NCBI GenBank assembly: GCA_964202115.1
Contig: CAXNIK010000001.1
Coordinates: forward strand, 1 to 48,513
Direction: 5' to 3'
Source of the DNA: Burkholderiales bacterium
GTDB taxonomy: Bacteria > Pseudomonadota > Gammaproteobacteria > Burkholderiales > SG8-39
DNA: 48,513 nucleotides
The position numbers and the translations under genes are program-made. A model generated the notes under the pieces. It was not told the origin of the DNA, did not search any database, and saw nothing but the letters and a program-made list of their open reading frames with translations. Shown here in pieces: positions 1 to 36,960 of the stretch. The first letter of the stretch is position 1. Each line of letters opens with the position of its first letter.

Positions 1-659
1 GCTTTCAATTTTCCCGAGCGGATATGTGGCAGCAGGGCAGGCATGTCGAGAATGGCCAGATTAACTTCGCCGGCCACAAGTGCAACTATGGCAGGCGCCG
101 CACCCTTGAACGGGATGTGCGCAATCTGGACTCCGGCGACGGTCTTGAATAGCTCTCCCGCCAGATGTGAAGTGGCACCATTACCAGACGAAGAAAAGTT
201 GAGTTGCCCCGGCTTTGCTTTCGAGATGGAGATCAATTCACTGACTGAAGTTGCTCCCAGGGAAGGGTGAATCACCAGGACGTTAGTGCCCAGACCGACG
301 AGCGATATGGGAGAAAAGTCCTTGATCGCGTCATAGGGCAGCTTGGGATACAAACTGGGGTTGATTCCATGGGTGCCGCCGGTGCCCCAAAGCAGGGTGT
401 ATCCATCCGGTTGAGCCCTGGCAACGTATTCGCTTCCGACGCCGCCGCCAGCGCCGGCCCTGTTTTCGATCAGCACCGGTTGGGCAAGGGAGTCCGAAAG
501 CCTTTGGCCTACCAATCGGGACATCATGTCAGTGGGGCCACCGGGGGGGTAAGGCACCACAATCCGGATGGGCTTTGCTGGATACGTTTGCGACTCGGCG
601 ACGGTAACCAGTCCAGACTGCAAATAAAGTGCTGCAAATAAAAGCAGGGGAGCGCGCAT
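1..659 (-). CDS. Bug/TctC-family periplasmic solute-binding protein, partial (N-terminal ~219 codons; C-terminus beyond window edge)
   Basis: Not in the ORF track because it runs off the edge. Hand translation of the minus strand from ATG at 659 gives MRAPLLLFAALYLQSGLVTVAESQTYPAKPIRIVVPYPPGGPTDMMSRLVGQRLSDSLAQPVLIENRAGAGGGVGSEYVARAQPDGYTLLWG...HIPFKGAAPA. It has a signal peptide plus the YPxKPxR-VP-PGG, NRxGAGG, PDGYT and (Y/F)KG motifs shared by all Bug paralogues here. Confidence 0.85.
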   Translation of the reverse strand, partial: MRAPLLLFAALYLQSGLVTVAESQTYPAKPIRIVVPYPPGGPTDMMSRLVGQRLSDSLAQPVLIENRAGAGGGVGSEYVARAQPDGYTLLWGTGGTHGINPSLYPKLPYDAIKDFSPISLVGLGTNVLVIHPSLGATSVSELISISKAKPGQLNFSSSGNGATSHLAGELFKTVAGVQIAHIPFKGAAPAIVALVAGEVNLAILDMPALLPHIRSGKLK

Positions 660-732
660 GATAGGCAGCTTCACGAAAGATTTTCCTTTGCCGAAGGTTG
701 GCCGAAGAGTGTTGCCGGTCGCAGGCAATGTG

Positions 733-1698
733 CTAGTCGGGCTCGTACTTGATCGCCTTGGTAACGCGCTGCCACTTTTGCACGTCGTTGGTCAGCCATA
801 CCTGAAGTTGTTCTGGCTTGAGGTGCCAAGGATCCAGTCCCATCTTGGCAAGCACTGACAGGACCTCAGAGCCGGAGAGCATGCGCTCCATCGTTTCATT
901 CAGCTTGCCAACAACGGAGCGGGCTGTACCGGCCGGGGCAATCAGGCCATACCCTGCCGTTACTTCAAACCCTGGATAGCCCTGTTCATCAATTGTTGGC
1001 ACATCGGGCAGATGTGCCCATCGTTTCTGACTGGCAATACCGATTACCCGCACTTTCCCCGCCTTTATCTGGGGAATGGCAGGAGGCGCAGCGACAAATG
1101 CAAGATCAACATTTCCGGCGACCACTTCCAGGAGGGCAGGAGCGGCACCCTTGTAAGGAATGTGCGTCATTTGAATGTTTGCGGTGAGTTTCAGAAATTC
1201 TCCGCTCAAGTGAAGCGCTCCACCCGTTCCCGAAGAAGAGAAATTCAGGGCACCTGGCTTGCTTTTGGCCAAAGCCACCAATTCCCCAACACTGTTGACT
1301 GCCAGCTTTGGATTGACAACCAGGACAAATTCACTCCTGGCAACAGGAGAAATGGCCGTGAAATCCTTCAGCGTGTCATAGGGCAGAAAGCGCTGGGTGC
1401 TGGGATTGATGGTATGCCCTGATGAAAAAATCTGGAGGGTATAGCCATCGGGGGCGGACTTGGCGACATGCTCGGTGCCGATAATTCCATTGCCTCCCGT
1501 TCTGAAGTCAATCACAAAAGGTTGACCGAGAGATTCGGTCAGCTTCTGGGAGACTGGCCGGGCAAGCAAGTCGATAGGGCCCCCAGGCGCAAAGGCAACA
1601 ATCAATCGTACAGGTCTTGTGGGATACGCCTGACCGTAGGCAAGCTGGCTTAGTGATGTCATCAGGATAAGAGGAAGTGCGCATGAGAGAAGCCGCAT
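733..1698 (-). CDS. Bug/TctC-family periplasmic solute-binding protein
   Basis: Track ORF of 321 aa. Signal peptide MRLLSCALPLILMTSLSQLAYGQ, then AYPTRPVRLIVAFAPGGPID, PDGYTL, IPYKGAAPA. AAGGA lies upstream of the ATG at 1698. Confidence 0.9.
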   Translation of the reverse strand: MRLLSCALPLILMTSLSQLAYGQAYPTRPVRLIVAFAPGGPIDLLARPVSQKLTESLGQPFVIDFRTGGNGIIGTEHVAKSAPDGYTLQIFSSGHTINPSTQRFLPYDTLKDFTAISPVARSEFVLVVNPKLAVNSVGELVALAKSKPGALNFSSSGTGGALHLSGEFLKLTANIQMTHIPYKGAAPALLEVVAGNVDLAFVAAPPAIPQIKAGKVRVIGIASQKRWAHLPDVPTIDEQGYPGFEVTAGYGLIAPAGTARSVVGKLNETMERMLSGSEVLSVLAKMGLDPWHLKPEQLQVWLTNDVQKWQRVTKAIKYEPD

Positions 1699-1770
1699 GT
1701 TGAGATTCCTTCTTGAGAACCGGTTTCAAAATGAGGAGCTCATTTTCGTAACTGCGCCCCTCCTGCTCCC

Positions 1771-1828
1771 CGACTTCAAATTGAATGAGCTTTCGCAGAG
1801 TGTGGCTGGCGCCGGGAGACATTGTGCC
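1771..1828 (-). repeat. Copy A (right half only) of the repeated upstream element
   Basis: Minus-strand sense: GGCACAATGTCTCCCGGCGCCAGCCACACTCTGCGAAAGCTCATTCAATTTGAAGTCG. It shares CCCGGCGCCAGCCAyAsTC..CGAAAG....ATT..ATTT with the copies at 2966, 5924 and 13447. It lies ~70 nt upstream of the Bug start at 1698. Confidence 0.7.
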
Positions 1829-1919
1829 TCGCTACGAGGTGTGGCTTGAATTCCTTTTGAGCAAGTTCACGAAGAGCAGACACCATCATCTGCTGCTCTT
1901 CTGCTGATTTGAAATCCAT
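1776..1919 (-). pseudogene. Acyl-CoA dehydrogenase N-terminal stump (~28 authentic codons, then reads into the repeat element)
   Basis: Hand translation gives GAAAGGAGATTGAA-ATG, then MDFKSAEEQQMMVSALRELAQKEFKPH LVARHNVSRRQPHSAKAHSI*. The first ~28 aa look like a typical ACAD N-terminus (MDFxLTEEQQMxRDxVRxFAxKEIAP) and the RBS is perfect. Similarity ends where repeat copy A begins. Confidence 0.6.
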
Positions 1920-1960
1920 TTCAATCTCCTTTCGGGCGTGCCACGAGTGGCACGTTGGTC

Positions 1961-2947
1961 CTATTCGCCTGGGACGACACCAGCCTCACTCACGATTTTT
2001 GACCATCTTGGAATTTCCTCAATGATCACTTTCCTGAATGCTGCCGAAGTTGTACCTTCCATAACGCTGCCATCGGCTTCGAGAGGGCTGGCGACCTCCG
2101 GATTCTTCGCGAGCTTGTTGAAAATCTCGTTCAGTCGGACGAGTACGGCCGACGGGACGGCAGACGGCGCGAAAATTCCGCTCCAATTCGCATAGTTGAA
2201 TTCGGGAACACCAGATTCGGCTATGGTGGGCAATGCCGGGATCACCCTTGATCGCCCGCTGCCGGTTACTGCCAATGGCCTGACTTTGCCGGCTTTTATC
2301 AGGGCGAGGGCCGCTTGCAAACCGACGATGGAAGAATCCAACCGCCCCGCCACCAGGTCAGCAATTTGCGGACCGGCACCCTTGTAATGCACGAGGGTAA
2401 CCTTCGTGTCCGTAAGATTGGCCAACCATATCAGCGCCAGGTGTCCCGTGGCCCCGATTCCGGAATTGCCGACATTTATCTTGTCGGGATTGGCTTTTGC
2501 ATAAGCGATGTACTCGCGAAAATTGGTGGCAGGGAAGGAGGGGTGCACAATGACGATTGATGGCGTTCGCTTCATCAGGGAAATGAAACTCATGTCATCA
2601 ACCGGATCGAATCCTATATCTTTGTAAAAGGCGGCCATCGCCGTATAACTTGTGGTGTTAATCAGCAAGGTGTGGCCATCAGGTCTCGATTTGGCGACAA
2701 AGCTGGAGCCAATAGATGTGCCCGCACCGGGTTTGTAGTCAACAATAAGAGCCTTGGTGAGCAGATCCCCCATTTTTGCAGAGTAAAGTCGGGCTTCCCG
2801 GTCAACTGGACCGCCCGGGGCAAATGGCACAACCATCGTGACAGGTCTGGTCGGGTACGCGGTCGCTACGCTTTGACCAAGCCCGCAATGAGGAAACATC
2901 AGTGCAGATACAGTCAGTAACAGGTACAGGCGTTGCGCAGGGCACAT
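1961..2947 (-). CDS. Bug/TctC-family periplasmic solute-binding protein
   Basis: Track ORF 1961..2980. I prefer the internal ATG at 2947 (MCPAQRLYLLLTVSALMFPHCGLGQSVATAYPTRPVTMVVPFAPGGPVD), because the TTG at 2980 lies inside repeat copy B. PDGHTL and HYKGAGP motifs are present. Confidence 0.88.
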   Translation of the reverse strand: MCPAQRLYLLLTVSALMFPHCGLGQSVATAYPTRPVTMVVPFAPGGPVDREARLYSAKMGDLLTKALIVDYKPGAGTSIGSSFVAKSRPDGHTLLINTTSYTAMAAFYKDIGFDPVDDMSFISLMKRTPSIVIVHPSFPATNFREYIAYAKANPDKINVGNSGIGATGHLALIWLANLTDTKVTLVHYKGAGPQIADLVAGRLDSSIVGLQAALALIKAGKVRPLAVTGSGRSRVIPALPTIAESGVPEFNYANWSGIFAPSAVPSAVLVRLNEIFNKLAKNPEVASPLEADGSVMEGTTSAAFRKVIIEEIPRWSKIVSEAGVVPGE

Positions 2948-2965
2948 GGTCGGCTTCAAGAGAAA

Positions 2966-3031
2966 GGACAGGAAATTCAATGGGCTTTCGGGGAGTATGG
3001 CTGGCGCCGGGAACAGCCGTCAATCGCCGAT
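2966..3031 (-). repeat. Copy B of the repeated upstream element
   Basis: Minus-strand sense: ATCGGCGATTGACGGCTGTTCCCGGCGCCAGCCATACTCCCCGAAAGCCCATTGAATTTCCTGTCC. About 59 of 68 hand-aligned positions are identical to copy C. It contains the ATCG-G-CGAT palindrome, TTGACG-N18-CATACT, and a GGCTG/CAGCC hairpin. Confidence 0.8.
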
Positions 3032-3039
3032 CGTGGCGG

Positions 3040-3165
3040 TCAAGTTGAGGTAATGGTTGGACTGTCCCGTGCGCCGGTCAGCAGCGTGAACGCGACGAGG
3101 GCGCGGTCATGGCGCTGAATCGGGCTCTCTGCCGTCATCAGGGTGATGATACGGTTTCCATGCTG
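3040..3165 (-). pseudogene. Internal fragment of a tyrosine recombinase/phage-type integrase
   Basis: The minus-strand reading directly after the Bug stop is QHGNRIITLMTAESPIQRHDRALVAFTLLTGARDSPTITST*. The RxRALxxxxLLTGxRxS block is the conserved box-I region of tyrosine recombinases. The fragment has no start and ends at repeat copy B. Confidence 0.55.
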
Positions 3166-4167
3166 CTATTCGAGTTTGAGGCCGATGGCTTTGACGACGC
3201 GCTCATTGGAGGCGAGATCGGAGCGGATTAGTTTGTCGAAATCCTCGGGCGAAGTGACGAAGGGCTCGGTGCCTATCTTGAGGAAGCGCTCCCTGGTCTC
3301 CGCGCTGTTGAGCACCTTGGCGGTGGCGTCGTACAGGATGCGCACGACCTCACGCGGGGTCTTGGCCGGGGCAAGAAAGCCCAGCCAGCTCCCGTAGGCC
3401 GAGTTGGCCATGCCGGCCTCCTCGATGGAAGGCACGTTTGGCAGGAGGGTGGTGCGCCGCGACGACATCGCCAGCGGAGTGAGCCTGCCGCCCTGGATGC
3501 CTGGCATGGCGGCGACCAGCGAGGTATAGGTAAAGTCCACGCGGCCCGCCATCACTTCGTTCAGAGCGTCGGTGGTGGTCTTGAAAGGCACGTGCAGCGC
3601 CTCGAAGCCGCCGGCGATGCGGACTTTCTCCGACGAGATATGGGTGGAAGTGCCGGTGCCAGCCGAAGCGAAAGTCAAGGCGCCGGGCTTGGCCTTGGCG
3701 GCGGCCACCAGTTCCGCCACGGAAAGAATGTTCTTGGAGCGCGCGATCACCAGCACCAGCGGATTCTCAGCCAGCGTAGTGATGCCGGCGAAATCATTCG
3801 CGGGATGAAAGGGCACATTCTTGGTGACCAGTGACACGGTGGTATGCGAGGAAGGCACCGCAACGAGCGTCAACCCGTCGGGCGGTGAGATTGCGACTGC
3901 CTGCGTGCCGACAACGCCGCCTGCACCCAGCCGGTTCTCAACGACCACCGGCTGCTTCAACTCCTTGCCGATGGGCTCGTTGATAAGTCGCACGATCACG
4001 TCCAGCCCCGTACCCGGCCCATAAGGCACGATGACTCGAACGGGACGCGAGGGAAAGCTCTGGGCTAAAACGTTGTTTGCGAAAAGCGCCGCAGTGGTAC
4101 CGAACAGCGCGCCGACGAGCGTGATGGCCGTAGCGCGACGCATCACCGTCCTTTTTGCTTGCTGCAT
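3166..4167 (-). CDS. Bug/TctC-family periplasmic solute-binding protein
   Basis: Track ORF of 333 aa. Signal peptide, then SFPSRPVRVIVPYGPGTGLD, PPDGLTL, VPFKTTTDA. AAGGAG lies upstream of the ATG at 4167. It starts 45 nt after the upstream gene and is probably co-transcribed. Confidence 0.88.
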   Translation of the reverse strand: MQQAKRTVMRRATAITLVGALFGTTAALFANNVLAQSFPSRPVRVIVPYGPGTGLDVIVRLINEPIGKELKQPVVVENRLGAGGVVGTQAVAISPPDGLTLVAVPSSHTTVSLVTKNVPFHPANDFAGITTLAENPLVLVIARSKNILSVAELVAAAKAKPGALTFASAGTGTSTHISSEKVRIAGGFEALHVPFKTTTDALNEVMAGRVDFTYTSLVAAMPGIQGGRLTPLAMSSRRTTLLPNVPSIEEAGMANSAYGSWLGFLAPAKTPREVVRILYDATAKVLNSAETRERFLKIGTEPFVTSPEDFDKLIRSDLASNERVVKAIGLKLE

Positions 4168-4211
4168 CCTCTGCTCCTTTGGCTGTAGTTGTCGCTGCCC
4201 CGCGGCTGCGC

Positions 4212-5912
4212 TCAGATGTCAATCTTCTTGGTGGTCGGAAACCCGAGATGGCCGTTGTGCGCGAATACATAGCCATTGGTGCGCAGCGGATCGCCCGATA
4301 TGGCGATCATGTACTGGTCTGGCGACCAGACCAGCGGCACTTTGCGATTCGGGTCATCGGACTCCGCAAAAAAAGCAGGTATCCGTCCCGCCTTCGCTTC
4401 CTCGGTGAGGCTCCACACCGGCCGGCCGTTCCAGTCGCGCAGCTGGCGCTCGAACTCCCATGCCGGAATGCGCGCGTGGTCAAACACGTACTGCCGGATA
4501 TCGTCCTTGGACCAGCCTGCCTGGGCGATCGTTTCAGCGAGGATGGGCGTGAGCATGATGAGCGGCCGCAGCGTTCCATATCCCCGTCCATGCGAGAAAC
4601 ATATCTGCCAGGAAATGTGGCGGAACATGGCATCGGACAGATAGTCGCAGAGCTGCTCGGGCGTATGCCCGGAGAGTGAAGCGATAAGGTCGCCGCCGGT
4701 ATAGCGCGCCACGGTCACCGTGCTGTCGTCGCGCGAAAAACCGGCCTCCATGGCGATGGACTTCCATCCCAGCTTCTCCAGCGCCTCCTCGTTCTCCGGC
4801 ACCACCACCCGCCAGGTATTGCCGTAGGTGCCCTTGTCGGTGCGATGCGGCAGGAACCCCGCCACATTGCGCAGGAACAGGCGCCAAAAGCGGCCCACGG
4901 AGGTGTTCGGCTGAAAACCGTCGCGCATCACCCCCTGGGTGTAATTGAAGCCGAAACGCTTGATGACCGGCCCGTTGAGGATGATGAGCGTTTCAGCGCC
5001 GGGGGTGTTGCCACTATGTTCCACGCCATAGCGCTTGTCGATCATGGCCTCGGCCAGCGCCAGCAGGATGGGCATGTATTCGGGACGGCAACCCGCCATC
5101 ACGCCGTTGACGGCCACGCTCCACACGGTGGCGGTGCGCCGGTCGGGCAACATCACGCCCATCACCTCGTCCGGCCGACGCCGGGTGTGGCTGAGGAACT
5201 CTTCGACGCGCGCCCTGGTTGGCGGAACGACGGGCAGTCCGTCGCCCCATTCATTCTTGATGAATTCCTCGTTGATCTCAAAGAAGCCGCCACGCGCAAC
5301 TATGTCGCGCGGACCAGGCTCCTCGTCCACCTCAACGCTGCTGGTGGCCTCGGTCAGGTTGGCGATGACGCAGTCAAGCGTGACGTTCATGACGTTGTTG
5401 TATATCTCCTCCGGGCTCTGAACCCCGGTGTGCCCGGGCACGTGCGCAAGCGGCATGTCCGGATAACCCAAGCCGACAGTGGTGGCTTTTGCCTGGCCCA
5501 TGAAGCCCGTGCACACCAGGGCGGCGGTGGGTATTCCGGCTTCTTCCGCTTTCTCGTTCGCCCGCAGCACGGCGGGCGTACAGCTCCCTCAAGCAGCCAT
5601 GCCGGTGATGGCGGCGGTCACTCCATACTCGCGTAAAGTTTCGGGCAGTTTTTCGACAACCTCATGCTCGGTCGGGCTGTGGATGTTGCCAATATCCTTC
5701 CAACTCACGAACTTGACGTTCTTGAAGCGCTTCTGGATGCCTTCCCGCAGCGCCTCGAACAACTGGTCGCCACGAAAGCCGTAGGTCCACATCTCGGCAA
5801 TGACGGCATTGTCCAGTGTCGCCAGCCGCTTGGCCAGTGGTTTGCGCCGGCCCTTGCGTTCGGCACGCGGCCAGTACGCTTCGTAGTAACCGTCGTTTTC
5901 CGCTTGCGCCAT
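4212..5912 (-). CDS. Candidate selenoprotein: UGSC-motif redox domain fused to an uncharacterised GDGLPxVPPT/AGCRPEY domain. It is 566 aa if UGA 5589-5591 is decoded as Sec108.
   Basis: Track ORFs 5589..6125 (real start ATG 5912, AGGAG 5 nt upstream) and 4212..5570 are in the same frame. They are separated only by TGA plus 6 sense codons: ...VTAAITGMAA-TGA-GSCTPAVLRANEK.... The downstream ORF has no ATG start. A SECIS-like hairpin follows the UGA. Confidence 0.6.
5559..5578 (-). promoter_or_regulatory. SECIS-like stem-loop 10 nt downstream of the in-frame UGA
   Basis: mRNA sense: UGA GGGAGCUGUA CGCCCGC-CGUGCU-GCGGGCG AAC. This is a perfect 7-bp GC-rich stem with a 6-nt loop containing GU. 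It can extend by U-A, G-C and U-G pairs across an A.A mismatch. Confidence 0.5.
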
Positions 5913-5923
5913 GTTTGCTCCTG

Positions 5924-6043
5924 AGGATAGAAAATCCAATAGGGCCTTTCGTCGAGTATGGCTGGCGCCGGGTGCAGCCGTCAATCGCCGATTATGGGCC
6001 GGCTGCGTCGCGATTTGCAGAAAGGCCCGCCGACTAGCACCCA
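5924..6043 (-). repeat. Copy C (longest) of the repeated upstream element, directly upstream of the candidate selenoprotein gene
   Basis: Minus-strand sense: GGGTGCTAGTCGGCGGGCCTTTCTGCAAATCGCGACGCAGCCGGCCCATAATCGGCGATTGACGGCTGCACCCGGCGCCAGCCATACTCGACGAAAGGCCCTATTGGATTTTCTATCC, followed by TCAGGAGCAAACATG. The right 68 nt match copies B and D. The left arm GGGTGCTAnnCGGCGGGCCTTTCTGCAAAT recurs at 12302-12332. Confidence 0.8.
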
Positions 6044-6302
6044 GGCACTCATGGATAAGCGCAAGCAGCATGGCCTGGTGTGCAAGCGTGCACGCAAGTG
6101 GAAGGCAACGTCCAACTCCAGGCATCGATTACCCGTCGCCCTCAATCTGCTGGATTGACATCATGAGTGCGAGTGCGCAAACTTGACCTTGAGCTGACAG
6201 GAACAGGCTTGGGTCAACAGTTGCGAGTTTCCCGGGTTCCGATGGAGGCCTTCTTCTCTCCCGCCGACTTAAATTTCAACTTTCTTGGAGGAACGACACA
6301 TC

Positions 6303-7439
6303 ATGTCGAAGGCTGGGTTCAAGATTTTCGACGCCGACGCCCACGTAAGCGAGCCACCCGAAATCATCGAGAAGTACATCGACTCCGCGTACAAGGAAAA
6401 ACTCCTGAAGTGGAAGATTCCCGGGATTGCGACTTACCGGCCCAACCATATCGGGTTTACCCGTGTCCTCGGCACTTCGCCAAGCGCCGAGCATTCCAAG
6501 CCCGTGGCACGCCAGAACGTCTCGCCGCGTCACCGCCAGGCTCCGATGCCGAATACGAATACCGATCCGGAAGAGCGCATTGTCGACATGAACCAGGAGG
6601 GCATCGACGGTGGCCTGATTCTGCCAACGGGCGTGGGCTCCTTCTGTTCCGTGGATGACCTCGGTCTCGAGATGGCCGTGATCAAGGCCTATCACCGTTT
6701 CATGAGCGATTTCTGCAGGAACTATCCCGGCAGGCTGTATGCAGTCGCCGTGGTGTCCGCGCGCAATATCGACGAATCAATCGCGGAATTGAAGCGCGTG
6801 GCAAAGGAGCCCTGGCCTGCTGCAATATTTCCCTCGTTGCCGCCGCGCATGCCGCTGGATGACCCGGCGCTGGATCCCCTATGGGCAGCGGCGAATGACC
6901 TGGACATGACCATCGCCCTGCACACCTTTACGGTGATTCCGCCCTACGCTCCTGGTGCCCTGGACGGTTCCTATTTCGACAACTACTGGCTGGCGCGCGC
7001 GGCGGCCCATCCCTGGTGCGGCATGCGCAACATGGCGGCGCTGCTGGGCAGCGGCGTGCTGGATCGCCACAAAAAGCTCAACATCTCCCTGCTGGAGGCA
7101 GGCCAGGGCTGGCTGCCCTACTGGGTCAAGCGCCTGGACGAGCAGGCGGCCTACAGCCCTTCATCACTGCCGGCCGGCATTCGCACGGTCAAGGAATACA
7201 TCGACGCAGGCCGCTATTTCCAGTCCATCGAAATGCACGAAGGCGAATCGATGACCAAGTACGTCATTGACGAAATCGGCGAGGATACGCTCATGTTCTC
7301 AAGCGACTATCCGCACGGCGAGACCTGGTTCCCGGACACCGTTGACACCTTCCTCGGCTGGAAGAGCATTACCGAGAAGGTGAAGCGCAAGGTCTTCTGG
7401 GACAACGCCAAGCGTTGCTACCCGAGGATTGCAGGTTGA
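6303..7439 (+). CDS. Amidohydrolase-2 (ACMSD-like) family metal-dependent hydrolase/decarboxylase
   Basis: Track ORF 6285..7439. I prefer the ATG at 6303 (MSKAGFKIFDADAHVSEPPE), with GGAGG at 6287-6291. The FDADAHV N-terminal motif and the C-terminal SDYPHGE are typical of PF04909-type amidohydrolases. Confidence 0.8.
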   Translation: MSKAGFKIFDADAHVSEPPEIIEKYIDSAYKEKLLKWKIPGIATYRPNHIGFTRVLGTSPSAEHSKPVARQNVSPRHRQAPMPNTNTDPEERIVDMNQEGIDGGLILPTGVGSFCSVDDLGLEMAVIKAYHRFMSDFCRNYPGRLYAVAVVSARNIDESIAELKRVAKEPWPAAIFPSLPPRMPLDDPALDPLWAAANDLDMTIALHTFTVIPPYAPGALDGSYFDNYWLARAAAHPWCGMRNMAALLGSGVLDRHKKLNISLLEAGQGWLPYWVKRLDEQAAYSPSSLPAGIRTVKEYIDAGRYFQSIEMHEGESMTKYVIDEIGEDTLMFSSDYPHGETWFPDTVDTFLGWKSITEKVKRKVFWDNAKRCYPRIAG

Positions 7440-7445
7440 GTGAAG

Positions 7446-7478
7446 GGCGAGGATGACGGGGGCCGCCCCGTCCTCGCC
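7446..7478 (+). terminator. GC-rich hairpin just after the amidohydrolase stop
   Basis: GGCGAGGA-tga-CGGGG-gccg-CCCCG-TCCTCGCC, a composite 13-bp stem. There is no clear T-tract, so an intrinsic-terminator role is tentative. Confidence 0.4.
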
Positions 7479-7733
7479 GCCCGGGTCACCGGAAAACGTG
7501 AATGGAATACCCGTAAGTAACGGCGCAGGAATGCTGCTCGAGTAGCAGTCCCGAAATGCCTGAAGAATTCGCACCGGGGCGCCATGCATGGGGAAGATAT
7601 CGCCCTCAATCGCATGATCCCGAACCACGCGCATACTGCTCTCTCTCACCAGCCACTGACGGAACCGGAAAAAACAGCAGGACCAGCTTGATTCAATGAG
7701 TGCCGGGGAAACCATCAATCTTTCACGAAAGAA

Positions 7734-8723
7734 ATGGAAATCATGAGCAACATTCAACGGATTTACGCTTTCATCTTCGTGTCGTGCTTTATGTCGTCCG
7801 CGCACGCGCAAAAGCCGGAAGGCCTGCCGGGAAATTATCCGGCCAAGACGGTCAGGATCATCATCGCCTCAAACCCCGGCGGCGCCCTGGATATCTCCGG
7901 CCGCATCGTGGGCCAGAAGCTGACTGAGAGATGGGGCACCAATTTCGTCGCGGAAAACCGCGCCGGCACCGGGATTGCGTATGACCTGGTATCAAAGGCA
8001 GCTCCCGACGGGTACACCCTGATGGTTTCTTCGACCAGCATCATGTACACGTCCTACGGGGTACTCAAGCCGTCATACGATGTCAGGACAAAATTTCCGC
8101 CCATAGCGCAATTCATCGCGGCGCCGTTCATTGTGGCCGTTACCCCTTCGTTGCCGGTCAATTCCATGAAGGAGCTGATTGCTTACGCCAAGGCAAACCC
8201 GAATGTGATCAACTATTCCTATTCCGGAATCGGCAGCGCTGCGCAGCTTGCCGGAGAACTGCTGAAGTTGATTGCCAAGGTCGACATAGTGGGGATTCCC
8301 CATAGTGGCGTCGGACCCGGATACATCGAGCAAATGGCGGGGCGCATTCATATGACTATCGGCACGGCGGCGTCGGCCATGCCGCTGGTCAGGGCCGGAA
8401 AGATTCGCGCCATTGCGGTAACGACCACCAAACGCGCCAAGGCACTCCCGGACCTCCCCGCAATTACCGAGACGCTTCCCACCTTCGACAACATTGACGT
8501 ATGGGTGGGATTGCTCGGCGTTGAAGGCATGCCGCAAAGCATGATTGCCGCCCTCAACAAGGAGGTCAACACCATCCTCCAGTTGCCGGAAGTCACCAAA
8601 GTGCTGACTGCGGACGGATCGGAAACAACGCCGACGACTCCGGAGCAATTCAGGAAGGTCATTGCCCAGGTGCTTGAATCGACGGATCGCATCGTCAGGG
8701 ATGCGGGCATCCAGCTCAAATAA
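7734..8723 (+). CDS. Bug/TctC-family periplasmic solute-binding protein
   Basis: Track ORF of 329 aa. Signal peptide ...FVSCFMSSAHAQ, then NYPAKTVRIIIASNPGGALD and PDGYTLM. The start could be 7734 or 7743. Confidence 0.88.
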   Translation: MEIMSNIQRIYAFIFVSCFMSSAHAQKPEGLPGNYPAKTVRIIIASNPGGALDISGRIVGQKLTERWGTNFVAENRAGTGIAYDLVSKAAPDGYTLMVSSTSIMYTSYGVLKPSYDVRTKFPPIAQFIAAPFIVAVTPSLPVNSMKELIAYAKANPNVINYSYSGIGSAAQLAGELLKLIAKVDIVGIPHSGVGPGYIEQMAGRIHMTIGTAASAMPLVRAGKIRAIAVTTTKRAKALPDLPAITETLPTFDNIDVWVGLLGVEGMPQSMIAALNKEVNTILQLPEVTKVLTADGSETTPTTPEQFRKVIAQVLESTDRIVRDAGIQLK

Positions 8724-8831
8724 CGTTTGGAGGCCGTTTCAGAATGAATGCCTGAAACGGCCCCTGATGTTGGGGAGCATAAGGGGGCCTGCCCCCTCAT
8801 CTTCAAACCGGTTCATATTCAGGAGAATGAA

Positions 8832-9800
8832 ATGGTAGCAACGCCCAAGCGCAAGACCACAAGACTGAAAGAGCTCTACAACCGCAAGGGCAAGCCGTTG
8901 ATCTGCATCAGCGCGCCCTCGCCCTATGCGGCGAAGATCCTGGAAGACATGGGTTACGAGTACACCTTTGCGGCAGGGGGTGTGACCGGAACGGCCATGC
9001 TGGGGATGCCTGACAACGGCACCATCGGACTCTCCGAGTTCGTGGCCATGGCCAAGCTGATTGGAGATGCCGTCAGCATCCCGGTCGCGTGCGATGTCGA
9101 TACCTGCTTTGGCGGGATATTCCACGTGGAGCGGGCCACCAGCGAGCTGATCAGGGCCGGCCTTGCCGGCATGCGCATCGAAGACCAGCCGTTTGTCGGA
9201 AAGCGGTTTGGCGGCATGGTGGGAAAAGAGGTCATCCCGGTCAAGGAGGCGGTGGCCAAATACCGCGTGGCGATCGACACGCGCAATGCCCTGGATCCGG
9301 ACTTCCAGATCATTGCGCGCTGCGAGGCGCTGACGGCATCGAACTCCAGGGGCCTGCCTGAAGCCATAGAGCGCATGCAGGCCTACAAGGAGGCGGGGGT
9401 GGATGTCCTGCATATCGAGGGGCCGAGGACCGTGGATGAAATCAAGGCCGTACGTGCGGCGGTCAAGGGGCCCTTGACCGGAAATTTCTACAACCTTCCC
9501 GATGACCTGACGCCTGAAGAGTCGGTGGAGCTGGGCCTGTGCGAGTCGCGCTATCCGGCATTGCTGTCCAGCGCGATGAATGCGGCTGCCTTTGAAATGC
9601 TGGATGCCTTCAACAAGAAGGGCTATCAGGGGGTGCGCGACTTCTTCAAGCTGTTTTCGGGAAAGATTGACCAGCGCACCATCGACATGTCGGCGCAAAA
9701 ACGTGTCCGGGAGATGGAGGAGAAGTATCTTCCGGCGGAAATGCTCGACAAATACGCGACAGTGCCGAGCGGAAGCGGAGTAATGACCGGAAATAAATAG
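8832..9800 (+). CDS. Isocitrate lyase/PEP mutase superfamily enzyme
   Basis: Track ORF 8748..9800. I prefer the ATG at 8832 (MVATPKRKTTRLKELY), preceded by CAGGAGAATGAA. Motifs CDVDTCFGG and AGMRIEDQPFVGKRFGG match the DxDTGxG / IEDQ..KR signature region. There is no KRCGH Cys, so it is not a canonical ICL/MICL. Confidence 0.75.
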   Translation: MVATPKRKTTRLKELYNRKGKPLICISAPSPYAAKILEDMGYEYTFAAGGVTGTAMLGMPDNGTIGLSEFVAMAKLIGDAVSIPVACDVDTCFGGIFHVERATSELIRAGLAGMRIEDQPFVGKRFGGMVGKEVIPVKEAVAKYRVAIDTRNALDPDFQIIARCEALTASNSRGLPEAIERMQAYKEAGVDVLHIEGPRTVDEIKAVRAAVKGPLTGNFYNLPDDLTPEESVELGLCESRYPALLSSAMNAAAFEMLDAFNKKGYQGVRDFFKLFSGKIDQRTIDMSAQKRVREMEEKYLPAEMLDKYATVPSGSGVMTGNK

Positions 9801-9839
9801 GGTCTGCCCTTTAATTTGTGGTGGATGGATGTGGGCGAT

Positions 9840-9872
9840 AAAGTCCTGCGAAGCGTAGCGAAGCAGGACTTT
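9840..9872. terminator. 10-bp perfect hairpin between convergent genes
   Basis: AAAGTCCTGC-gaagcgtagcgaa-GCAGGACTTT. The loop contains GCGAAGC twice. It lies between the stop of the PEPM-family gene (9800) and the stop of the CoA-transferase (9992). Confidence 0.45.
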
Positions 9873-9991
9873 GTAGCGCGGCCGCCAAGGGGTAGCATGA
9901 TCGGTGAAGGGGGTGTGGCCCATAGGGCCGGTCGGTTTCGTGCTGATTCACTCTGAAGTGCCGCCCCGTCATCCCCATCATCAAACCAACA

Positions 9992-11098
9992 TCAAGCCAT
10001 CACCCCAACCCTGTCCGCCACCACGAAGCGCATTTCCGTCAGCTTTGCCACCTCCTCCGCCGTGAAGCCCGGTGCGACTTCTTCCAGCACGAAGCTGCTG
10101 CCGTTCCAGCGCAACAGGGCAAGATCGGTGACGATCCAGTTGACGCAGTTGCGCGCAGTCAGCGGCAGGGTGCACTGGCGGCGCAGCTTGTGGCGGCCCT
10201 GGCTGTCGTGGTGTTCCATGACGACAATGAGGAGTGCGTTGCCGGCAACGAGATCCATGGCACCGCCCACGCCACCGAGGTTGGGGATGAGCGGCTTCGC
10301 GAAGGTCCAGTTGGCGAGGTTCGCCGATTCGTCCACTTCATAGGCACCGAGCACCACGGCATCCAGATGCCCGCCGCGGCCCATCTCGAAGGACGTGACG
10401 CTGTCAAAGAAGGAAGCCCCCGGCACCGTGGACACGAAGGCGGCACCGGCGTTGGCCACGCGCGGATCGATGGCGTTGCCGGTGAGGATTTCGCCATAAC
10501 CCAGCATGCCGTTCTCGGCATGCAGCAGCACGTCGCGCCCCTGGAGGAAATTCGATACCTGTTCGGGAATGCCTGAGCCCAGGTTGACGTAACCGCCCTC
10601 CGGGATGAGCGCGGCGGCGCGCCGGGCGATGCCCGCGCGCGTGAGAGCGGGCCTGCCCATGTAGTTGCGCGCGGCTTCTGCAGTGCGCCGGCGCGAGGGC
10701 CGTGGCGTCACTTCGCTCACCGACTGGGTGGTGCGCACGACGCGAGTGACGAAGATGCCGGGCAGGTCGATGTCATCCGGCGCCAGTTGCCCGGTCTGGA
10801 CGACTTCATCGACCTCGGCAATGGTGATGCGCGCGCACTTGGCAAAGGCGATATTCATGTTGCGCGTGGTACCGCGGAAGGCGAGGTTGCCGGCATGATC
10901 GGCACGCCAGGCGCGCACGAAGGCGAAGTCGGCAGTGATGGCCTGTTCCAGCACATGGGGCCGGCCCTCGAAGTGGCGCACCGCCTTGATCAGGTCCACC
11001 GGCCAGTTGAACTGCTGTCCGAAGCCGCCCAGCACGATGGTGGCACCGTCCTGGAGATCGGAGATGGCGGCAGCGGGGGATGCGAAGACTTTATCCAT
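9992..11098 (-). CDS. Family-I 3-oxoacid CoA-transferase: fused A-B polypeptide with an internally shortened A part
   Basis: Track ORF of 368 aa. The N-terminus MDKVFASPAAAISDLQDGATIVLGGFG and ...ADFAFVRAWRADHAGNLAFRGTTRNMN..ITIAEVDEVV resemble subunit A. The C-terminal 210 aa (GYVNLGSGIPE, LLHAENGMLGYG, LGGVGGAMDLVAG, TLPLT) resemble subunit B, including the SENG-type catalytic Glu. Confidence 0.75.
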   Translation of the reverse strand: MDKVFASPAAAISDLQDGATIVLGGFGQQFNWPVDLIKAVRHFEGRPHVLEQAITADFAFVRAWRADHAGNLAFRGTTRNMNIAFAKCARITIAEVDEVVQTGQLAPDDIDLPGIFVTRVVRTTQSVSEVTPRPSRRRTAEAARNYMGRPALTRAGIARRAAALIPEGGYVNLGSGIPEQVSNFLQGRDVLLHAENGMLGYGEILTGNAIDPRVANAGAAFVSTVPGASFFDSVTSFEMGRGGHLDAVVLGAYEVDESANLANWTFAKPLIPNLGGVGGAMDLVAGNALLIVVMEHHDSQGRHKLRRQCTLPLTARNCVNWIVTDLALLRWNGSSFVLEEVAPGFTAEEVAKLTEMRFVVADRVGVMA

Positions 11099-11147
11099 GC
11101 TGGTTGAGCCTGGTCCTGGGCCAGTCGAGGGATGAATGTCCTCCGGC

Positions 11148-12125
11148 CTAATCGATTCTGATATTCCCCGCCTTGACCACCGCCGCCCAGCGCACCGTCT
11201 CCGCCTGTATGTTCTTCGCGAATTCCTCGGGCGTGCTCGCGACGATCTCCAGTCCCTGCTTGCCCAGGGTGGAACTGCCCTCGGCGGAGGTCAGATACTT
11301 CACCGTCTCCGCATTCATGCGCGCGATGATGGCGCGCGGTGTCTTCGCCGGCGCGAGGATGCCGGTGCCCGACTGCACCTGGAACTCGGCTATGCCCGCC
11401 TCCCCAGCCGTGGGCACATCCGGCAGAGCTGCCACCCGCTTGGGCGCGCTCACCGCCAGCATCCTCAGCTTGCCCGCCTTGACGAAGGCAATGGTGGTCG
11501 GCACGCCTATGGTCATGAGGTCCACGCGTCCTGCCACCACGTCGGTGAGGGCCGGGCCGGCACCCTTGAAGGGCACATGCTGCATCTGCGTCTTTGTGAT
11601 CATGGCCAGCAGTTCCGCTGCCAGGTGATTGATGCTGCCATTGCCCGAGGAGGCAAAGGTGAGCTTGCCCGGGTTGGCACGCAGGTGGGCGATCAGGTCC
11701 TTCACCGACGCTGCCGGCACACCCGGATGAACCACGATGGCATTGGGATTCATGGCGATGGACACAATGGGCGCCAGGTCGCGCTGCGGATCGAAGCTCA
11801 TGCTGTAGAGCGCCGGGTTGATGGTGAGCTGGCTGCTGGTTGCAAAGAGCAGCGTGTAGCCGTCGGGCGCGGCGCGTACCACCTCGTAGGCGCCGATGTT
11901 GCCGTTGGCCCCGGGCCGGTTATCGATGATCACCTGCTGGCCGAACACCTGCGACAGATGGGCCACGATGGGCCGCGCGATGTTGTCATTGCCGCCGCCG
12001 GCCGCGTAGCCATTGATCATGCGCACGGGTTTGGCGGGCCAGGTCTGGGCGGCGGCGGACTGGGACAGTGTCGCGGCCAAAGTGGCCAGGCCCAGCAAGG
12101 CCAGCGTCGGGATTCTTTTCATCAT
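11148..12125 (-). CDS. Bug/TctC-family periplasmic solute-binding protein
   Basis: Track ORF of 325 aa. MMKRIPTLALLGLATLAATLSQSAAAQTWPAKPVRMI, PDGYTLL, VPFKGAGPA. A strong AAGGAGGA RBS precedes it. Confidence 0.9.
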   Translation of the reverse strand: MMKRIPTLALLGLATLAATLSQSAAAQTWPAKPVRMINGYAAGGGNDNIARPIVAHLSQVFGQQVIIDNRPGANGNIGAYEVVRAAPDGYTLLFATSSQLTINPALYSMSFDPQRDLAPIVSIAMNPNAIVVHPGVPAASVKDLIAHLRANPGKLTFASSGNGSINHLAAELLAMITKTQMQHVPFKGAGPALTDVVAGRVDLMTIGVPTTIAFVKAGKLRMLAVSAPKRVAALPDVPTAGEAGIAEFQVQSGTGILAPAKTPRAIIARMNAETVKYLTSAEGSSTLGKQGLEIVASTPEEFAKNIQAETVRWAAVVKAGNIRID

Positions 12126-12242
12126 TCCTCCTTGTTCAAATCGGGTGCCGGCATTGGCCGGACTTTATTATCAATTATGTATTCTGCTCATTTATGCTGT
12201 TACATCATTGAACAGAATGTAATCAAGCCTATACTGGCAATC

Positions 12243-12332
12243 AGCCCCCTCGCTGGCAGGCCGGCATTCCAGTCAAAGTACCGAGCCGGCTGAAGGAAGA
12301 AATTTGCAGAAAGGCCCGCCGGATAGCACCCC
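12243..12332 (-). repeat. Copy E of the repeated element: well-conserved left arm, diverged core
   Basis: Sense: GGGGTGCTATCCGGCGGGCCTTTCTGCAAAT (12302-12332) matches the left arm of copy C almost exactly. The following ~55 nt (CAGCCGGCT..TTTGACTGG..GCCGGCCTGCCAGCG) align only loosely to the core. Confidence 0.55.
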
Positions 12333-12385
12333 AAGTTCTGGGCTAATTTTGAGTTGGCACAAATGGCGTTGTGCCCAAAATTGAG

Positions 12386-13378
12386 CTATTCCTCCAGCTT
12401 GATGTCGGCGGCCTTCACCACCTTGCGCCAGCGCTCGGTCTCGGCGACGATGAGTTCGCGGAACTGCGCGGGCGTGTTACCCACCATGAAACTCCCGTCG
12501 GCTTCCAGCGCCTTGACGATCTCGGGTGTCCTCGCGGTGAGAGCGAAGTTCTCGCTCATTTTGTTCACAATGGCAGACGGCGTCCCGGCGGGAACCACAA
12601 AACCCAGCCAGCTGGAGTAGTTGTACCCTGGCACCCCCTGCTCCGCGATCGTCTGCAACTGAGGTAGCGCGTGCGTGCGCCGATCACTGGCAATGGCCAG
12701 CGCGCGCACCTTGCCGGATTTGATCAGAGGCATCAAGGTTGTGAGCGCCTCCATCGCGACGTCCACCCTGCCCGCCACCAGATCCAGGGTCGAGGGTCCT
12801 GTGCCCTTGTAATGGACGAAAGTGACTTTCGTTCCCGTGAGGTTGTGGAACCAGGAACCCGCCATGTGACCGGCGCCACCGCTTCCTGAGTCGCCGAAGT
12901 TCAGCTTTCCGGGATTGGCCCTGGCGTAAGTCAGGTATTCCTGGATGTCCTTCGCTGGTACGGAAGGATTCACCACCATGACGGCGGAGCGCACACTCAT
13001 CAGTGATATGGGCGCGAAATCGGCGATTGGATCGAAGGGCAGATTCCTCGCCGTGGCTGCCATCATGCTGAAAGTCGACGGTACGATAAGCACGGTATAG
13101 CCGTTGGGCGCCGACTTCGCCACGAAGTTGGTGCCGATGACGTTGCCAGCGCCGGGCTTGAAGTCGAGCACAAAGGACTGCCCCATCAGTTCGGACATCC
13201 TGATGATGTAGAGCCGGACCTCGCGCTCCGTCGGCCCGCCGGGCGACGTCGCAGCCACAATCTGCACCGGCCGGGAGGGAAAGTTGGCCGCCGGTTCCTG
13301 TGCCGCAGTCGGGAGCGAGACTAGCGTTGATAGCATCAAAGCAGGCAACAGCAACCCTTGCCGATTCGTCATCATCAT
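12386..13378 (-). CDS. Bug/TctC-family periplasmic solute-binding protein
   Basis: Track ORF 12386..13390 starts at a GTG that lies inside GAGGAGAG. I prefer the ATG at 13378 (MMMTNRQGLLLPALMLSTLVSLPTAAQEPAANFPSRPVQIV). APNGYTVL and HYKGTGPS motifs are present. Confidence 0.88.
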   Translation of the reverse strand: MMMTNRQGLLLPALMLSTLVSLPTAAQEPAANFPSRPVQIVAATSPGGPTEREVRLYIIRMSELMGQSFVLDFKPGAGNVIGTNFVAKSAPNGYTVLIVPSTFSMMAATARNLPFDPIADFAPISLMSVRSAVMVVNPSVPAKDIQEYLTYARANPGKLNFGDSGSGGAGHMAGSWFHNLTGTKVTFVHYKGTGPSTLDLVAGRVDVAMEALTTLMPLIKSGKVRALAIASDRRTHALPQLQTIAEQGVPGYNYSSWLGFVVPAGTPSAIVNKMSENFALTARTPEIVKALEADGSFMVGNTPAQFRELIVAETERWRKVVKAADIKLEE

Positions 13379-13446
13379 GGCTCTCCTCACTTGGATGGAT
13401 CTATGGCGAATTACCCCGGGATATTACTCCCGGAGGGACTGATGCG

Positions 13447-13514
13447 AGGGACAGGAAATCCAAGGGGCTTTCGGGGACTATGACTGGCGCCGGGTGCAGC
13501 AGCCAATCGATTCG
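13447..13514 (-). repeat. Copy D of the repeated upstream element
   Basis: Sense: CGAATCGATTGGCTGCTGCACCCGGCGCCAGTCATAGTCCCCGAAAGCCCCTTGGATTTCCTGTCCCT. The palindrome here is AATCGATT. In the hairpin arm, C>T creates a G.U pair rather than a mismatch. Confidence 0.8.
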
Positions 13515-13585
13515 CGCGGCCTCACCGCCTCCACTTTGAACTCATCGGTGTACTGGCTGTCAGGTACGGACTCTTTTTTGCTCAT
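13478..13585 (-). mobile_element. IS3-family OrfA (transposase N-terminal) stump
   Basis: Hand translation from ATG 13585 gives MSKKESVPDSQYTDEFKVEAVR PRESIGCCTRRQS*. The Y(S/T)xEFKxEAVR motif is the hallmark start of IS3-family OrfA proteins. The reading runs into repeat copy D after ~22 codons. Confidence 0.5.
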
Positions 13586-13769
13586 TGTGGCGCCCGTTCA
13601 TCAGAAATTTACCTCCAATCTGATGTGCGCGAAACTATGGCAAGATCAGAATTGAGCCAGAAGACCGAGGTTTAGCGCTCCCCTTGCCACTGTACCCGGA
13701 GACAGGCGTTGATCCTTACACCAGCGCATTTCAAGCGGCCGTAATCATTTTCGAAAATTGGGGCATGAC

Positions 13770-15452: not shown

Positions 15453-15648
15453 TCTATTCTCACCGCTCAAAGATCAGACCGTGGATTCACCGATGCAATA
15501 CAAGTCAAGCCTGGAAGATGGAACACGTCGCCCCAGCATCGGGCTGCAGCGTGGCTGTTGCGCCGGGCTCAATGCGGGAACCCCATGCAGACCGGGTTGA
15601 CAGGGCAGGCCTGGCAGACCAGGCAGAAAATAACGCGGAGCCGACATC

Positions 15649-17253
<1,605 letters not shown>

Positions 17254-35671: not shown

Positions 35672-36634
35672 TCATTCCGCCCGAATGCCGATATCCCTGA
35701 TTAATTTTCCCATCGTTGTCATATCCGCCTTGATTGCTGCAGCGAACTCCTCCGGCGTGCTTCCTACCGTGTCGATCCCGATCCTGGAAAACCTTTCCCG
35801 TGCATCGGACGTATTCAGAATTCGCACTATCTCCTGGTTCAGTCGGGTGACAATGGAAGCAGGCGTCTTTGCCGGTGCGAACACACCGTAAAACGAACTG
35901 GCGCTGTAACCAGGCAAATCTGCCGATGCGCTCGGCACTCCCGGATAGAGAGCAGACATCTCCCCACCAGTCACGGCTATTGCTCTCAATCTGCCTGACC
36001 TGGCATGCGGCGCCACGGCCGTGGCGGGCGCGAATATCACTTTCACGTCTCCCGATAACACTCCATTGATTGCCTGTGCTGATCCTTTATAAGGGATGCG
36101 CCGCAAATCAACGCCAGCCATTACCTTGAACAATTCTGTCGCCAGATGGGATCCAGACCCTGCGTTTGCCGATGCATAATCGATTTCGCCCGGCTTTTGC
36201 TTTGCCAGCGTGATCAACTCCCTGACTGATTTGACAGGCAAGGATGGGTGCACAACGATAAGGTTGTAGGCCTTGTGTGTCAGGGAAACTGGAGCGAAAT
36301 CTCTTACAGGATCATAAGTGGCCTTCTCGGTCAGGAATGGCCAGAGCCACATTACGCTGGCTCCAACATGCAGCGTATGTCCATCAGGCGCGGCCTTGGC
36401 GACATGGTCCGCCGCAATCCCCGTGCCGGGACGGTTTTCAACTACGACTTGTTGTCCCACACTTTGCGGTAGCGCCTGCGCAATGACACGAGAGATGAGA
36501 TCGGTACCCCCCCCAGCCTCCAAGGTCACGATACGAATGACTTTACTGGGGTAGCTTTGCCCATGGGCCAGGCTGGAGATGAAGAACAATAAATGGAACA
36601 AGAACCACAAGACACTTGATTGGCGCACAGGCAT
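35672..36634 (-). CDS. Bug/TctC-family periplasmic solute-binding protein
   Basis: Track ORF 35672..36706. I prefer the ATG at 36634 (MPVRQSSVLWFLFHLLFFISSLAHGQSYPSKVIRIV), after AAGGAGC. Confidence 0.88.
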   Translation of the reverse strand: MPVRQSSVLWFLFHLLFFISSLAHGQSYPSKVIRIVTLEAGGGTDLISRVIAQALPQSVGQQVVVENRPGTGIAADHVAKAAPDGHTLHVGASVMWLWPFLTEKATYDPVRDFAPVSLTHKAYNLIVVHPSLPVKSVRELITLAKQKPGEIDYASANAGSGSHLATELFKVMAGVDLRRIPYKGSAQAINGVLSGDVKVIFAPATAVAPHARSGRLRAIAVTGGEMSALYPGVPSASADLPGYSASSFYGVFAPAKTPASIVTRLNQEIVRILNTSDARERFSRIGIDTVGSTPEEFAAAIKADMTTMGKLIRDIGIRAE

Positions 36635-36822
36635 ATCGATGCTCCTTGAGTCTTGGATAAGCGCACATAAGGGTGGTGAAAGCAGCTTGCGTCTTAGGGT
36701 CTGCAAACGTGCAGGATCATCCCCATACGATCGGTTCAGTTCCCTCTTACTGTGTTAAAAAAACAAACTATTATGAGTTCATCTTCAACCAACCTGTCAA
36801 GGCGAAGATGGACACGACGTGA

Positions 36823-36960
36823 ATGCAACAGTTCGAGGACTATGTGACGATGATTGCCGGCCACCTTGGACACGCGGATCGTGTGGGACCGTTTCGCGGC
36901 TACTGCGCGGGGCTGATGCTGCCTGGGGTGCGCAAGAGCGTTGAGCCGATGGGCGTATAG
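36823..36960 (+). mobile_element. IS701/IS4-like DDE transposase N-terminal stump (45 codons)
   Basis: Hand translation gives MQQFEDYVTMIAGHLGHADRVGPFRGYCAGLMLPGVRKSVEPMGV*. The xxLGHxxRxxxxxxYxxGLxxPGxRKSVEPM block is characteristic of IS701-type transposase N-termini. It is cut off at 36957-36960. Confidence 0.55.

Follow-up and report, generated by a model that had tools for sequence, protein, structure and literature searches.

The 48,513-nt stretch analysed here (the window) is the entire contig C1 (CAXNIK010000001.1) of a 3.58-Mb, 66% complete metagenome-assembled genome (MAG) of a Burkholderiales bacterium, and its first 14 kb contain minus-strand genes for Bug/TctC-type receptors and for a UGSC-family protein (Table 1). 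Repeat finding revealed one family of four direct copies of a short element in the window, at 1771-1831 (copy A), 2966-3026 (copy B), 5927-5987 (copy C) and 13449-13509 (copy D), with a 15-nt core that occurs four times against 0.56 expected. The sense of the element is the minus strand in all four; each copy sits just upstream of a minus-strand gene (three Bug/TctC, one UGSC), and on its other side lies the stump of a truncated gene. A scan of the whole MAG confined this subfamily to the same four places. All four copies carry a private GGCGCCAG at a position where every other aligned copy has GGCGTCAG or another variant, and they are therefore regarded as one lineage in this genome. The element is almost certainly the 5'-truncated origin end (oriIS, the right-hand end) of a rolling-circle insertion sequence (IS) of the IS91/ISCR family, about 1.75 kb long when complete.

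Table 1. Features of the window around the oriIS remnants, listed by position.
Feature	Position	Strand	Evidence and remarks
Bug/TctC receptor gene (downstream of A)	733-1698	-	Pfam TctC 7.7e-70
oriIS remnant A	1778-1818	-	~40 nt; alignment to full elements; nhmmer 1778-1818, E 0.003
Acyl-CoA dehydrogenase stump	1818-1919	-	start codon 1919, ribosome-binding site just upstream; clear homology to ~codon 29 (1833), possibly codon 34
Bug/TctC gene B	1961-2947	-	Pfam TctC 1.3e-57; start codon ~19 nt after remnant B tip
oriIS remnant B	2964-3043	-	~73-80 nt; nhmmer 1.6e-18
Tyrosine integrase internal fragment (..RHDRALVAFTLLTGARDS..)	~3049-3165	-	cut at both ends; three-way junction alignment
Bug/TctC gene upstream of integrase fragment	3166-4167	-	Pfam TctC 6.4e-65
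UGSC-family gene	4212-5912	-	Pfam UGSC on both halves; 12 nt downstream of remnant C tip
oriIS remnant C	5925-6049	-	~120 nt; nhmmer 9.4e-30
IS3 OrfB fragment (..HGLVCKRARKWKATSNSRHRLPVALNLLD)	~6088-6183	+	antisense to remnant C, abuts its inner end; fourth stump
Bug/TctC gene D (downstream of remnant D)	12386-13390	-	Pfam TctC 1.2e-67
oriIS remnant D	13449-13498	-	~50-57 nt; nhmmer 5.6e-13
IS3-family left end	13499-13648	-	terminal repeat TGATCTTGCC.. at 13648; OrfA start 13585; OrfA codons 1-28
Separate IS91/ISCR-type remnant, internally deleted	36955-37640	-	tblastn with the G341 transposase; Pfam Zn_Tnp_IS91 1.4e-12

Pattern scanning of 185,579 species genomes returned 22 loci, mostly in betaproteobacterial MAGs labelled Propionivibrio, Sulfuritalea, Azonexus, Dechloromonas and Sterolibacteriaceae. 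The aligned copies keep a constant 3' end (..TTGGATTTCCTATCC), beyond which they diverge, and differ in their 5' extents; the longest run upstream through a long perfect hairpin into an open reading frame (ORF) with Y2_Tnp and Zn_Tnp_IS91 domains, and in the full copies of relatives this transposase ORF stops about 130 nt before the conserved block. The long-read-like assembly G341 contains four copies, from which a unit of about 1.75 kb can be delimited whose two ends differ (left TGCTGAACCAACCG.., right ..GGATTTCCTATCC). The ORF is uninterrupted (501-502 aa) in two of the four and broken in the other two; the 502-aa product matches Y2_Tnp (3.6e-32) and Zn_Tnp_IS91 (2.5e-17), and in NCBIfam the ISCR clade Ia (1.8e-79) and IS91 (1.4e-28) models, both under the curated cut-offs. 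Comparison of these four copies revealed no terminal inverted repeats and no duplicated flank, and the flanks differ from copy to copy; it is these four that display the unlike ends and absent duplication of IS91/ISCR elements. The Y2/zinc-finger transposase typical of the family is encoded by the full copies in relatives, the window copies themselves being transposase-free.

In the IS91 family the order of parts is terIS-tnpA-oriIS, and insertion proceeds without target duplication at a tetranucleotide (CTTG, GTTC or CTCG, with T second) required next to oriIS; the oriIS tip adjoins the insertion target and co-mobilised DNA lies on the other, terIS side; the terminal 82 bp of IS91 are enough for an origin; and termination is often inaccurate, its failure moving adjacent DNA (PMC13181058). 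About 30 copies of the present element across genomes have the tip in common and then diverge after CT(T/C)N, a divergence point in keeping with this rule and with the IS91 identity. Most copies read CTT(N) or CTC(N) after ..CCTATC, with copy D and the copy in G026 deviating; C-T-T may be target or the last bases of the IS. Like IS91, IS801 and IS1294, the element has an HUH Y2 transposase with an N-terminal zinc-binding domain, unlike terIS and oriIS ends without terminal inverted repeats or target duplication and a subterminal palindrome, and it may also share with them an oriIS-adjoining tetranucleotide with T second and one-ended transposition carrying DNA beyond terIS, for which two of the G341 copies may be compared (PMC13181058). 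These two, copies 1 and 2, have 950 nt beyond the left end in common at 99% identity, which looks like the outcome of one-ended transposition or of a segmental duplication. The flank that they share beyond terIS (G341:C1:500300-503300 and 510084-512790; loci L034/L035) is the antisense 3' part of an acyl-CoA synthetase-like gene.

The element departs from the named members of the family in several respects: its transposase scores 100 bits against an NCBIfam IS91 curated cut-off of 125 and is only about 53% identical to that of the nearest named element, its target appears to be CT(T/C)N rather than CTTG/GTTC, and the window has tips only, with no transposase gene of this subfamily. An IS91-family element found on pADP-1 and on numerous catabolic plasmids, ISPps1, has the closest annotated transposase (53.5% aa identity across 95% of the length). 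The right tip of ISPps1 is identical, ..CCATACT..(12 nt)..TTGAATTTCCTATCC (its 3' end on pADP-1 reads ..CCATACTtggcctcatgcgGTTGAATTTCCTATCC, also given as ..CCATACT..GTTGAATTTCCTATCC), whereas at the nucleotide level the two elements differ; when the D and C flanks that bear the stumps, remnant included, were compared with plasmids by blastn, there was no match. The parent IS, with about 53% aa identity to ISPps1, joins the well-known IS91/ISCR kind as a new member.

Alignment to full elements delimits what each window copy has kept. In BLAST, copy B corresponds to positions 1688-1760 of the G341 IS (73 nt, 90% identity), copy C to 1634-1759 (82%) and copy D to 1698-1761 (87.5%). The gene-side end is constant in these three, and the tips of B and D are complete, reading ..TTTCCTGTCC followed by TTTC in B and by CTCG in D. 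Copy A is cut on both sides, having lost the -35 region with the left part as well as the last 6-7 nt of the IS tip. The stump-side ends vary, with about 40 (A), 73 (B), 120 (C) and 57 (D) nt kept, so the fixed breakpoint within the element for which the initial annotation had proposed to look does not exist; no target-site duplication accompanies the junctions either, and what they share is only the CT(T/C)N after the tip. An apparent breakpoint hot spot at ATCGGCG is probably an artefact of local alignments that stop where conservation drops. Copy C retains both arms of the 11-bp subterminal palindrome, whose left arm is missing from B and D, copy A lacking both ends. Single-strand DNA folds of B, C and D are no better than those of shuffled sequences, the palindrome being confined to the full-length origin region, and an Rfam search of 1-15000 with E-values up to 1 gave nothing relevant. 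BLAST and a scan with a left-end probe found no terIS (left-end) remnant of the subfamily in the window or in its own genome.

The truncated genes beside the copies, of which the initial annotation had recognised three, are genuine, and copy C adds a fourth. At copy A, the start of an acyl-CoA dehydrogenase (ACAD) gene, read earlier as about 28 codons at 1836-1919, has true homologues: the reading MDFKSAEEQQMMVSALRELAQKEFKPHLV (1919 to about 1833) matches in tblastn the starts of two paralogues in the same genome, on contig C3 (69%, E 2e-9), where the gene is an intact 380-aa ACAD, and on contig C23 (62%). Acyl-CoA_dh_N of Pfam is matched weakly, and a weak codon-level resemblance may extend to about 1818 (about codon 34), directly against the element. 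The C23 paralogue (C23:19037-19170) is itself a second truncated ACAD start (VDFKLTEEQRMMVASARTLAEREFKPLLVEWDQARAFPRKEVAM, then unrelated sequence); the genome-wide scan detected no oriIS remnant on that contig.

The integrase fragment at copy B, previously placed at 3040-3165, likewise holds up: window 3047-3149 is 85-89% identical at the nucleotide level to intact genes for 383-aa tyrosine recombinases in three genomes of the same genus (G003, G009 and G002), which read ..QRRDRALVAFTLLTGARDSAIASMKLKHV.. and match the XerC/XerD profiles of NCBIfam weakly. The stump thus has full-length homologues and contains the box I ..TGxR.. arginine region of tyrosine recombinases. One cut immediately follows the stop of the Bug gene at 3166-4167, and the other lies a few codons past TGAR, where 2-3 nt are common to integrase and element. 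A search of 61 relatives and 317 family genomes did not recover the joint between the integrase fragment and oriIS. That the integrase might be a passenger of the same IS was considered and rejected, there being no transposase beside the intact integrases and no integrase within full IS copies. Base composition changes at 2800-3200, from about 51-57% G+C at the lower coordinates (Bug A, Bug B) to about 60-65% at the higher ones (Bug 3166-4167, UGSC), and in the composition profile this step (about 63% versus 54%) coincides with the junction of the integrase fragment and oriIS B.

The stumps at D and C are both pieces of IS3-family elements. At D, window 13504-13648 is 74-79% identical at the nucleotide level to IS3 left ends in G028, G064 (two contigs) and G026, and G005 and G063 match over shorter stretches (76-82%); all these matches begin at the same TGA.. 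terminal repeat and have different outside flanks. The OrfA start, reported before as about 22 codons at 13520-13585, is six codons longer, its homology reaching codon 28 (..ESIG, MSKKESVPDSQYTDEFKVEAVRPRESIG, about 13499), and the outer IS3 end at 13648 is intact. OrfA of the G028 relative goes on ..ESIGGNKAAKRLGIPESSLWNW (HTH_Tnp_1, 3e-8), and the joint lies inside GATTG, a motif common to both parents, the IS3 and oriIS. It was also considered that the element might be a decayed helix-turn-helix region of IS3 OrfA, a reading rejected because IS3 homology ends at ..ESIG and the remainder matches the IS91-type tip. The OrfB fragment at C matches 591 plasmid records in tblastn (E 5e-5), among the matches listed mostly annotated IS3 transposases, and positions 155-206 of the NCBIfam transpos_IS3 model weakly (E 0.035). 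The IS3 hallmarks (TG.. terminal repeat, OrfA with HTH_Tnp_1, OrfB as DDE transposase) are recognised through homology to relatives, neither fragment alone reaching the Pfam threshold. With copy C counted, three of the four stumps, instead of two of three, are mobile-element genes. Intact counterparts were recovered for ACAD (the C3 paralogue) and the integrase (three congeners), and for the IS3 at D as left ends in relatives. A second IS also lies against the inner edge of an IS91-type copy at L040:1057-1497 (minus strand), in a MAG labelled Planctomycetota, where the C-terminus of an IS6-family transposase ends about 90 nt before a truncated copy.

Synteny indicates which side of copy A is new. 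Positions 151-1778 of the window, comprising two Bug genes and an 80-nt leader, are 90% identical to contig C65 of G001, a genome of the same genus, and this synteny ends at 1778, inside element A, with complete divergence beyond; past the break G001 has an unrelated leader, an EthD-like ORF and a short-chain dehydrogenase/reductase gene. The gene behind A is therefore resident, and element A, the ACAD stump and Bug B are the non-syntenic, new side at A. Only two other short blocks of 1780-16000 are syntenic in congeners (6302-7439 and 9992-12180), and the region as a whole is mosaic. In metagenomes, a search for sequences close to Bug B reached 49% identity at best. Outside the window, a 50-nt remnant in G345 is also present at the orthologous locus of G351. 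MAGs labelled Aquabacterium and Dechloromonas (L039/L042) have a remnant and both its flanks in common at 86-91% identity, which suggests transfer of a larger segment or a problem of binning or labelling.

A consensus scan predicts an outward-facing promoter-like site, TTGACG-18-CATACT, in copies B (3023-2994) and C (5984-5955), and found nothing in D, where the -35 is a hybrid (TTGGCT), or in A, from which the -35 region is missing. Among about 23 copies, at least 12 are located no more than 100 nt upstream of a co-oriented ORF start. The oriIS regions of ISCR1 carry functional outward promoters (POUT) that drive the adjacent gene (PMC6218425); the predicted sites of B and C would be their counterparts at the origin end of the present element. 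Several Bug/TctC receptor genes and the putative UGSC selenoprotein gene may be driven by transposon-borne promoters. The arrangement also recalls ISCR units such as CR2-delta-glmM-sul2 and truncated folK-sul4-ISCR28, in which stumps of unrelated genes accompany remnants that keep oriIS (PMC9376610, PMC12772301). The neighbours in those units are resistance genes, in contrast to the Bug/TctC receptors and UGSC gene of the window. In CR2-sul2, moreover, the delta-glmM stump lies between the transposase gene and sul2, beside a transposase-bearing element, whereas the stumps here abut the inner edge of a 5'-truncated oriIS piece.

We propose, at a probability of roughly 0.55, that the four copies are oriIS tips of IS91/ISCR-type insertion sequences whose remainder was lost by deletion in situ, the tip being retained next to a gene. 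Originally, an IS would have stood just upstream of each minus-strand gene, transposase first, its tip abutting a CT(T/C)N target. Later, the remainder of each IS would have been lost together with a variable length of upstream DNA, comprising two IS3 copies, an element with an integrase and, in the case of A, a resident gene for ACAD, through illegitimate, microhomology-mediated deletions, so that the stumps would be the far edges of these deletions, on the IS-internal side and with no fixed breakpoint. At D, an IS3 would have inserted beside or into the IS91-type element before a single deletion between GATTG repeats, a sequence of events that fits the intact outer IS3 end and the joint within GATTG. 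The tip may have persisted because of its contact with the downstream gene and the outward sigma-70-like promoter that it bears, which is intact in B and C, loss of the tip being likely to silence or damage that gene. On this proposal, four unrelated genes would end at one repeat because the repeat is what endures, as the origin tip, of a rolling-circle transposon that has decayed, and the pattern would be explained by ordinary scars of mobile DNA with no need of a new system. Deletion in steps does operate in this genome, as shown by a copy on contig C201 that consists of collinear IS patches (392-434 / 830-910 / 1270-1305 / 1689-1764 in BLAST to the IS). Decay by deletion is further supported by copy A, which is cut at its outer end too and joined there to the leader kept in G001, by the continuous spread of inner breakpoints among copies (25-255 nt), by the short microhomology at the B joint as well as at D, and by the frequent position of copies close to ORF starts.

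Several observations weigh against this proposal. It calls for four insertions plus six or more independent deletions in a 12-kb region, and no full IS, the state before deletion, was found at any of these sites in any relative. Right-end remnants outnumber left-end ones by 39 to 6 in five genomes, and by 34 to 2 where no intact copy assembled, transposase genes being nearly absent from three genomes; in these counts the left-end probe comes from one subfamily and MAGs under-assemble full copies. Random deletion alone does not predict such an excess, which needs either selection for the tip or a bias of rolling-circle transposition. Retention for the sake of a promoter is also at odds with the persistence of promoterless remnants (33 nt on contig C213, 25 nt in G345, and copy A) and with the negative promoter scan of D.

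The excess of right ends is a point in favour of another mechanism, which we consider unlikely overall but which survives best among the alternatives: each copy may have been dead on arrival, with oriIS joined first to CT(T/C)N, transfer aborted before terIS, and the inner end joined by microhomology to a site upstream with deletion of the target, so that one event created the truncated copy and its stump. This would account for the strong surplus of right-end-only over left-end remnants, for the continuum of inner breakpoints (25-255 nt across copies) behind a constant outer tip and for the microhomology at the D and B joints, would need one event per copy instead of two or three, and is in keeping with the known inaccuracy of IS91-family termination (PMC13181058). 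The C201 patchwork, however, shows that stepwise deletion in situ occurs, and the intact outer end of the IS3 at D fits nested insertion followed by deletion. Inspection of the alignment by eye revealed no ter-like tetranucleotide in the IS immediately ahead of the points where B, C and D are truncated, truncated insertion is not described for IS91 in the literature examined, and no empty-site comparison was obtained.

Less probable still is a one-ended, tandem-oriIS arrangement ('sandwich'), in which a solo oriIS served by a transposase in trans mobilises DNA on its inner side, the stump being cargo from the donor site. The cassettes would then be [UGSC-Bug-int'-oriIS_B] and [BugB-ACAD'-oriIS_A], each ending in oriIS. 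The 950 nt common to two G341 copies beyond their left ends, at 99% identity, the sufficiency of 82 bp as an IS91 origin and the movement of adjacent DNA on termination failure (PMC13181058) all speak for such mobility, and capture of a gene by two successive oriIS has been described for ISCR28 (as summarised in PMC12772301). Also in its favour, the window copies are direct repeats, the G+C step falls at B, and the integrase and IS3 OrfB fragments are cut on both sides. Yet when the flanks upstream of about 38 copies were compared all against all, no shared stump-plus-oriIS unit emerged, and no stump was common to different contexts, and the joint at B is missing from the relatives and family genomes searched for it. 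B and D, without the left palindrome arm, and A, without both ends, may not be competent origins, and the outer joint of A is not a canonical insertion joint.

A more general idea, which we regard as tentative and rather doubtful, is that solo oriIS tips are the normal, self-limiting product of rolling-circle transposition in this IS91 subgroup, arising as origin-first and usually truncated insertions, in the manner of 5' truncation in long interspersed elements (LINEs), or as tandem-oriIS cassettes remobilised in trans. If true, each event would deliver a promoter beside a gene, delete or carry upstream DNA and drive modular turnover of Bug-receptor arrays. The approximately 10:1 excess of origin-end over terminus-end remnants in several genomes could inform the termination or the decay of IS91-type elements.

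The initial annotation had taken the stumps to mean that the element and the gene behind it arrived or recombined as one promoter-gene unit that overwrote the locus. Its view of the junctions as sites of mobile-element rearrangement stands; the joint arrival of element and gene fails at A, the only site where it can be tested, and we now think it very unlikely. In ISCR1 contexts, circle-plus-recombination routes can place cargo downstream of oriIS, and outside the window one locus resembles such a replacement. In G342 (L041, C32:22125-22195), an oriIS remnant with an AT-rich small ORF follows murI, where G347 (L075, C1) has a 645-nt gene, and in G357 (L074, C139) a matching cassette (82% identity), whose oriIS part is longer, lies on a contig separate from that of murI; the arrangement fits replacement by a unit of oriIS plus gene. 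This interval is, however, hypervariable among relatives, and no empty site without the element was recovered in the comparisons of G342, G347 and G357 or of G345 and G351. In the window, the Bug pair and leader behind A are resident, with the break inside the element; no other genome has oriIS together with Bug B, Bug D or UGSC as a unit; and the geometry of IS91 puts co-mobilised DNA on the opposite side. The same note had held simple promoter duplication to be unlikely, and this is borne out by the identity of the element: a non-mobile promoter or operator, duplicated with co-regulated transporter genes or convergently kept before them, would suit the promoter-like core, the small palindrome and the position just upstream of genes, but is hardly credible for a sequence that forms the 3' end of a repeat with a transposase gene, has its tip in common with ISPps1, is patchy (six of 316 other family genomes searched) and precedes unrelated genes.

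For annotation, the short ORFs at 1772-1919, 3040-3138 and 13482-13585 are pseudogene fragments and the 40-120-nt repeats IS91-family remnants. Further oriIS remnants occur elsewhere in the MAG: three on contig C201 (2839-2920, 5356-5431 and 6514-6548), one on C305 and one on C213. The last, a 33-nt tip (C213:2673-2704), comes after a PIN_3 toxin gene that is represented by its first half (profile positions 1-61 of 115), which makes another stump. On contig C201 there is a second oriIS subfamily, marked by a common internal-deletion joint. In the separate remnant at 36955-37640 of the window, a Zn-finger transposase fragment is fused to a C-terminal fragment and followed by an ISCR-like tip (..GGTTTGAAATCCCTATAC), which lies about 250 nt upstream of, and faces, a Bug gene at 35672-36706. 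As for the UGSC gene, an in-frame TGA at 5591-5589 (..GMAA-TGA-GSCTP..) leads ORF callers to split it in two, and this codon probably encodes selenocysteine.

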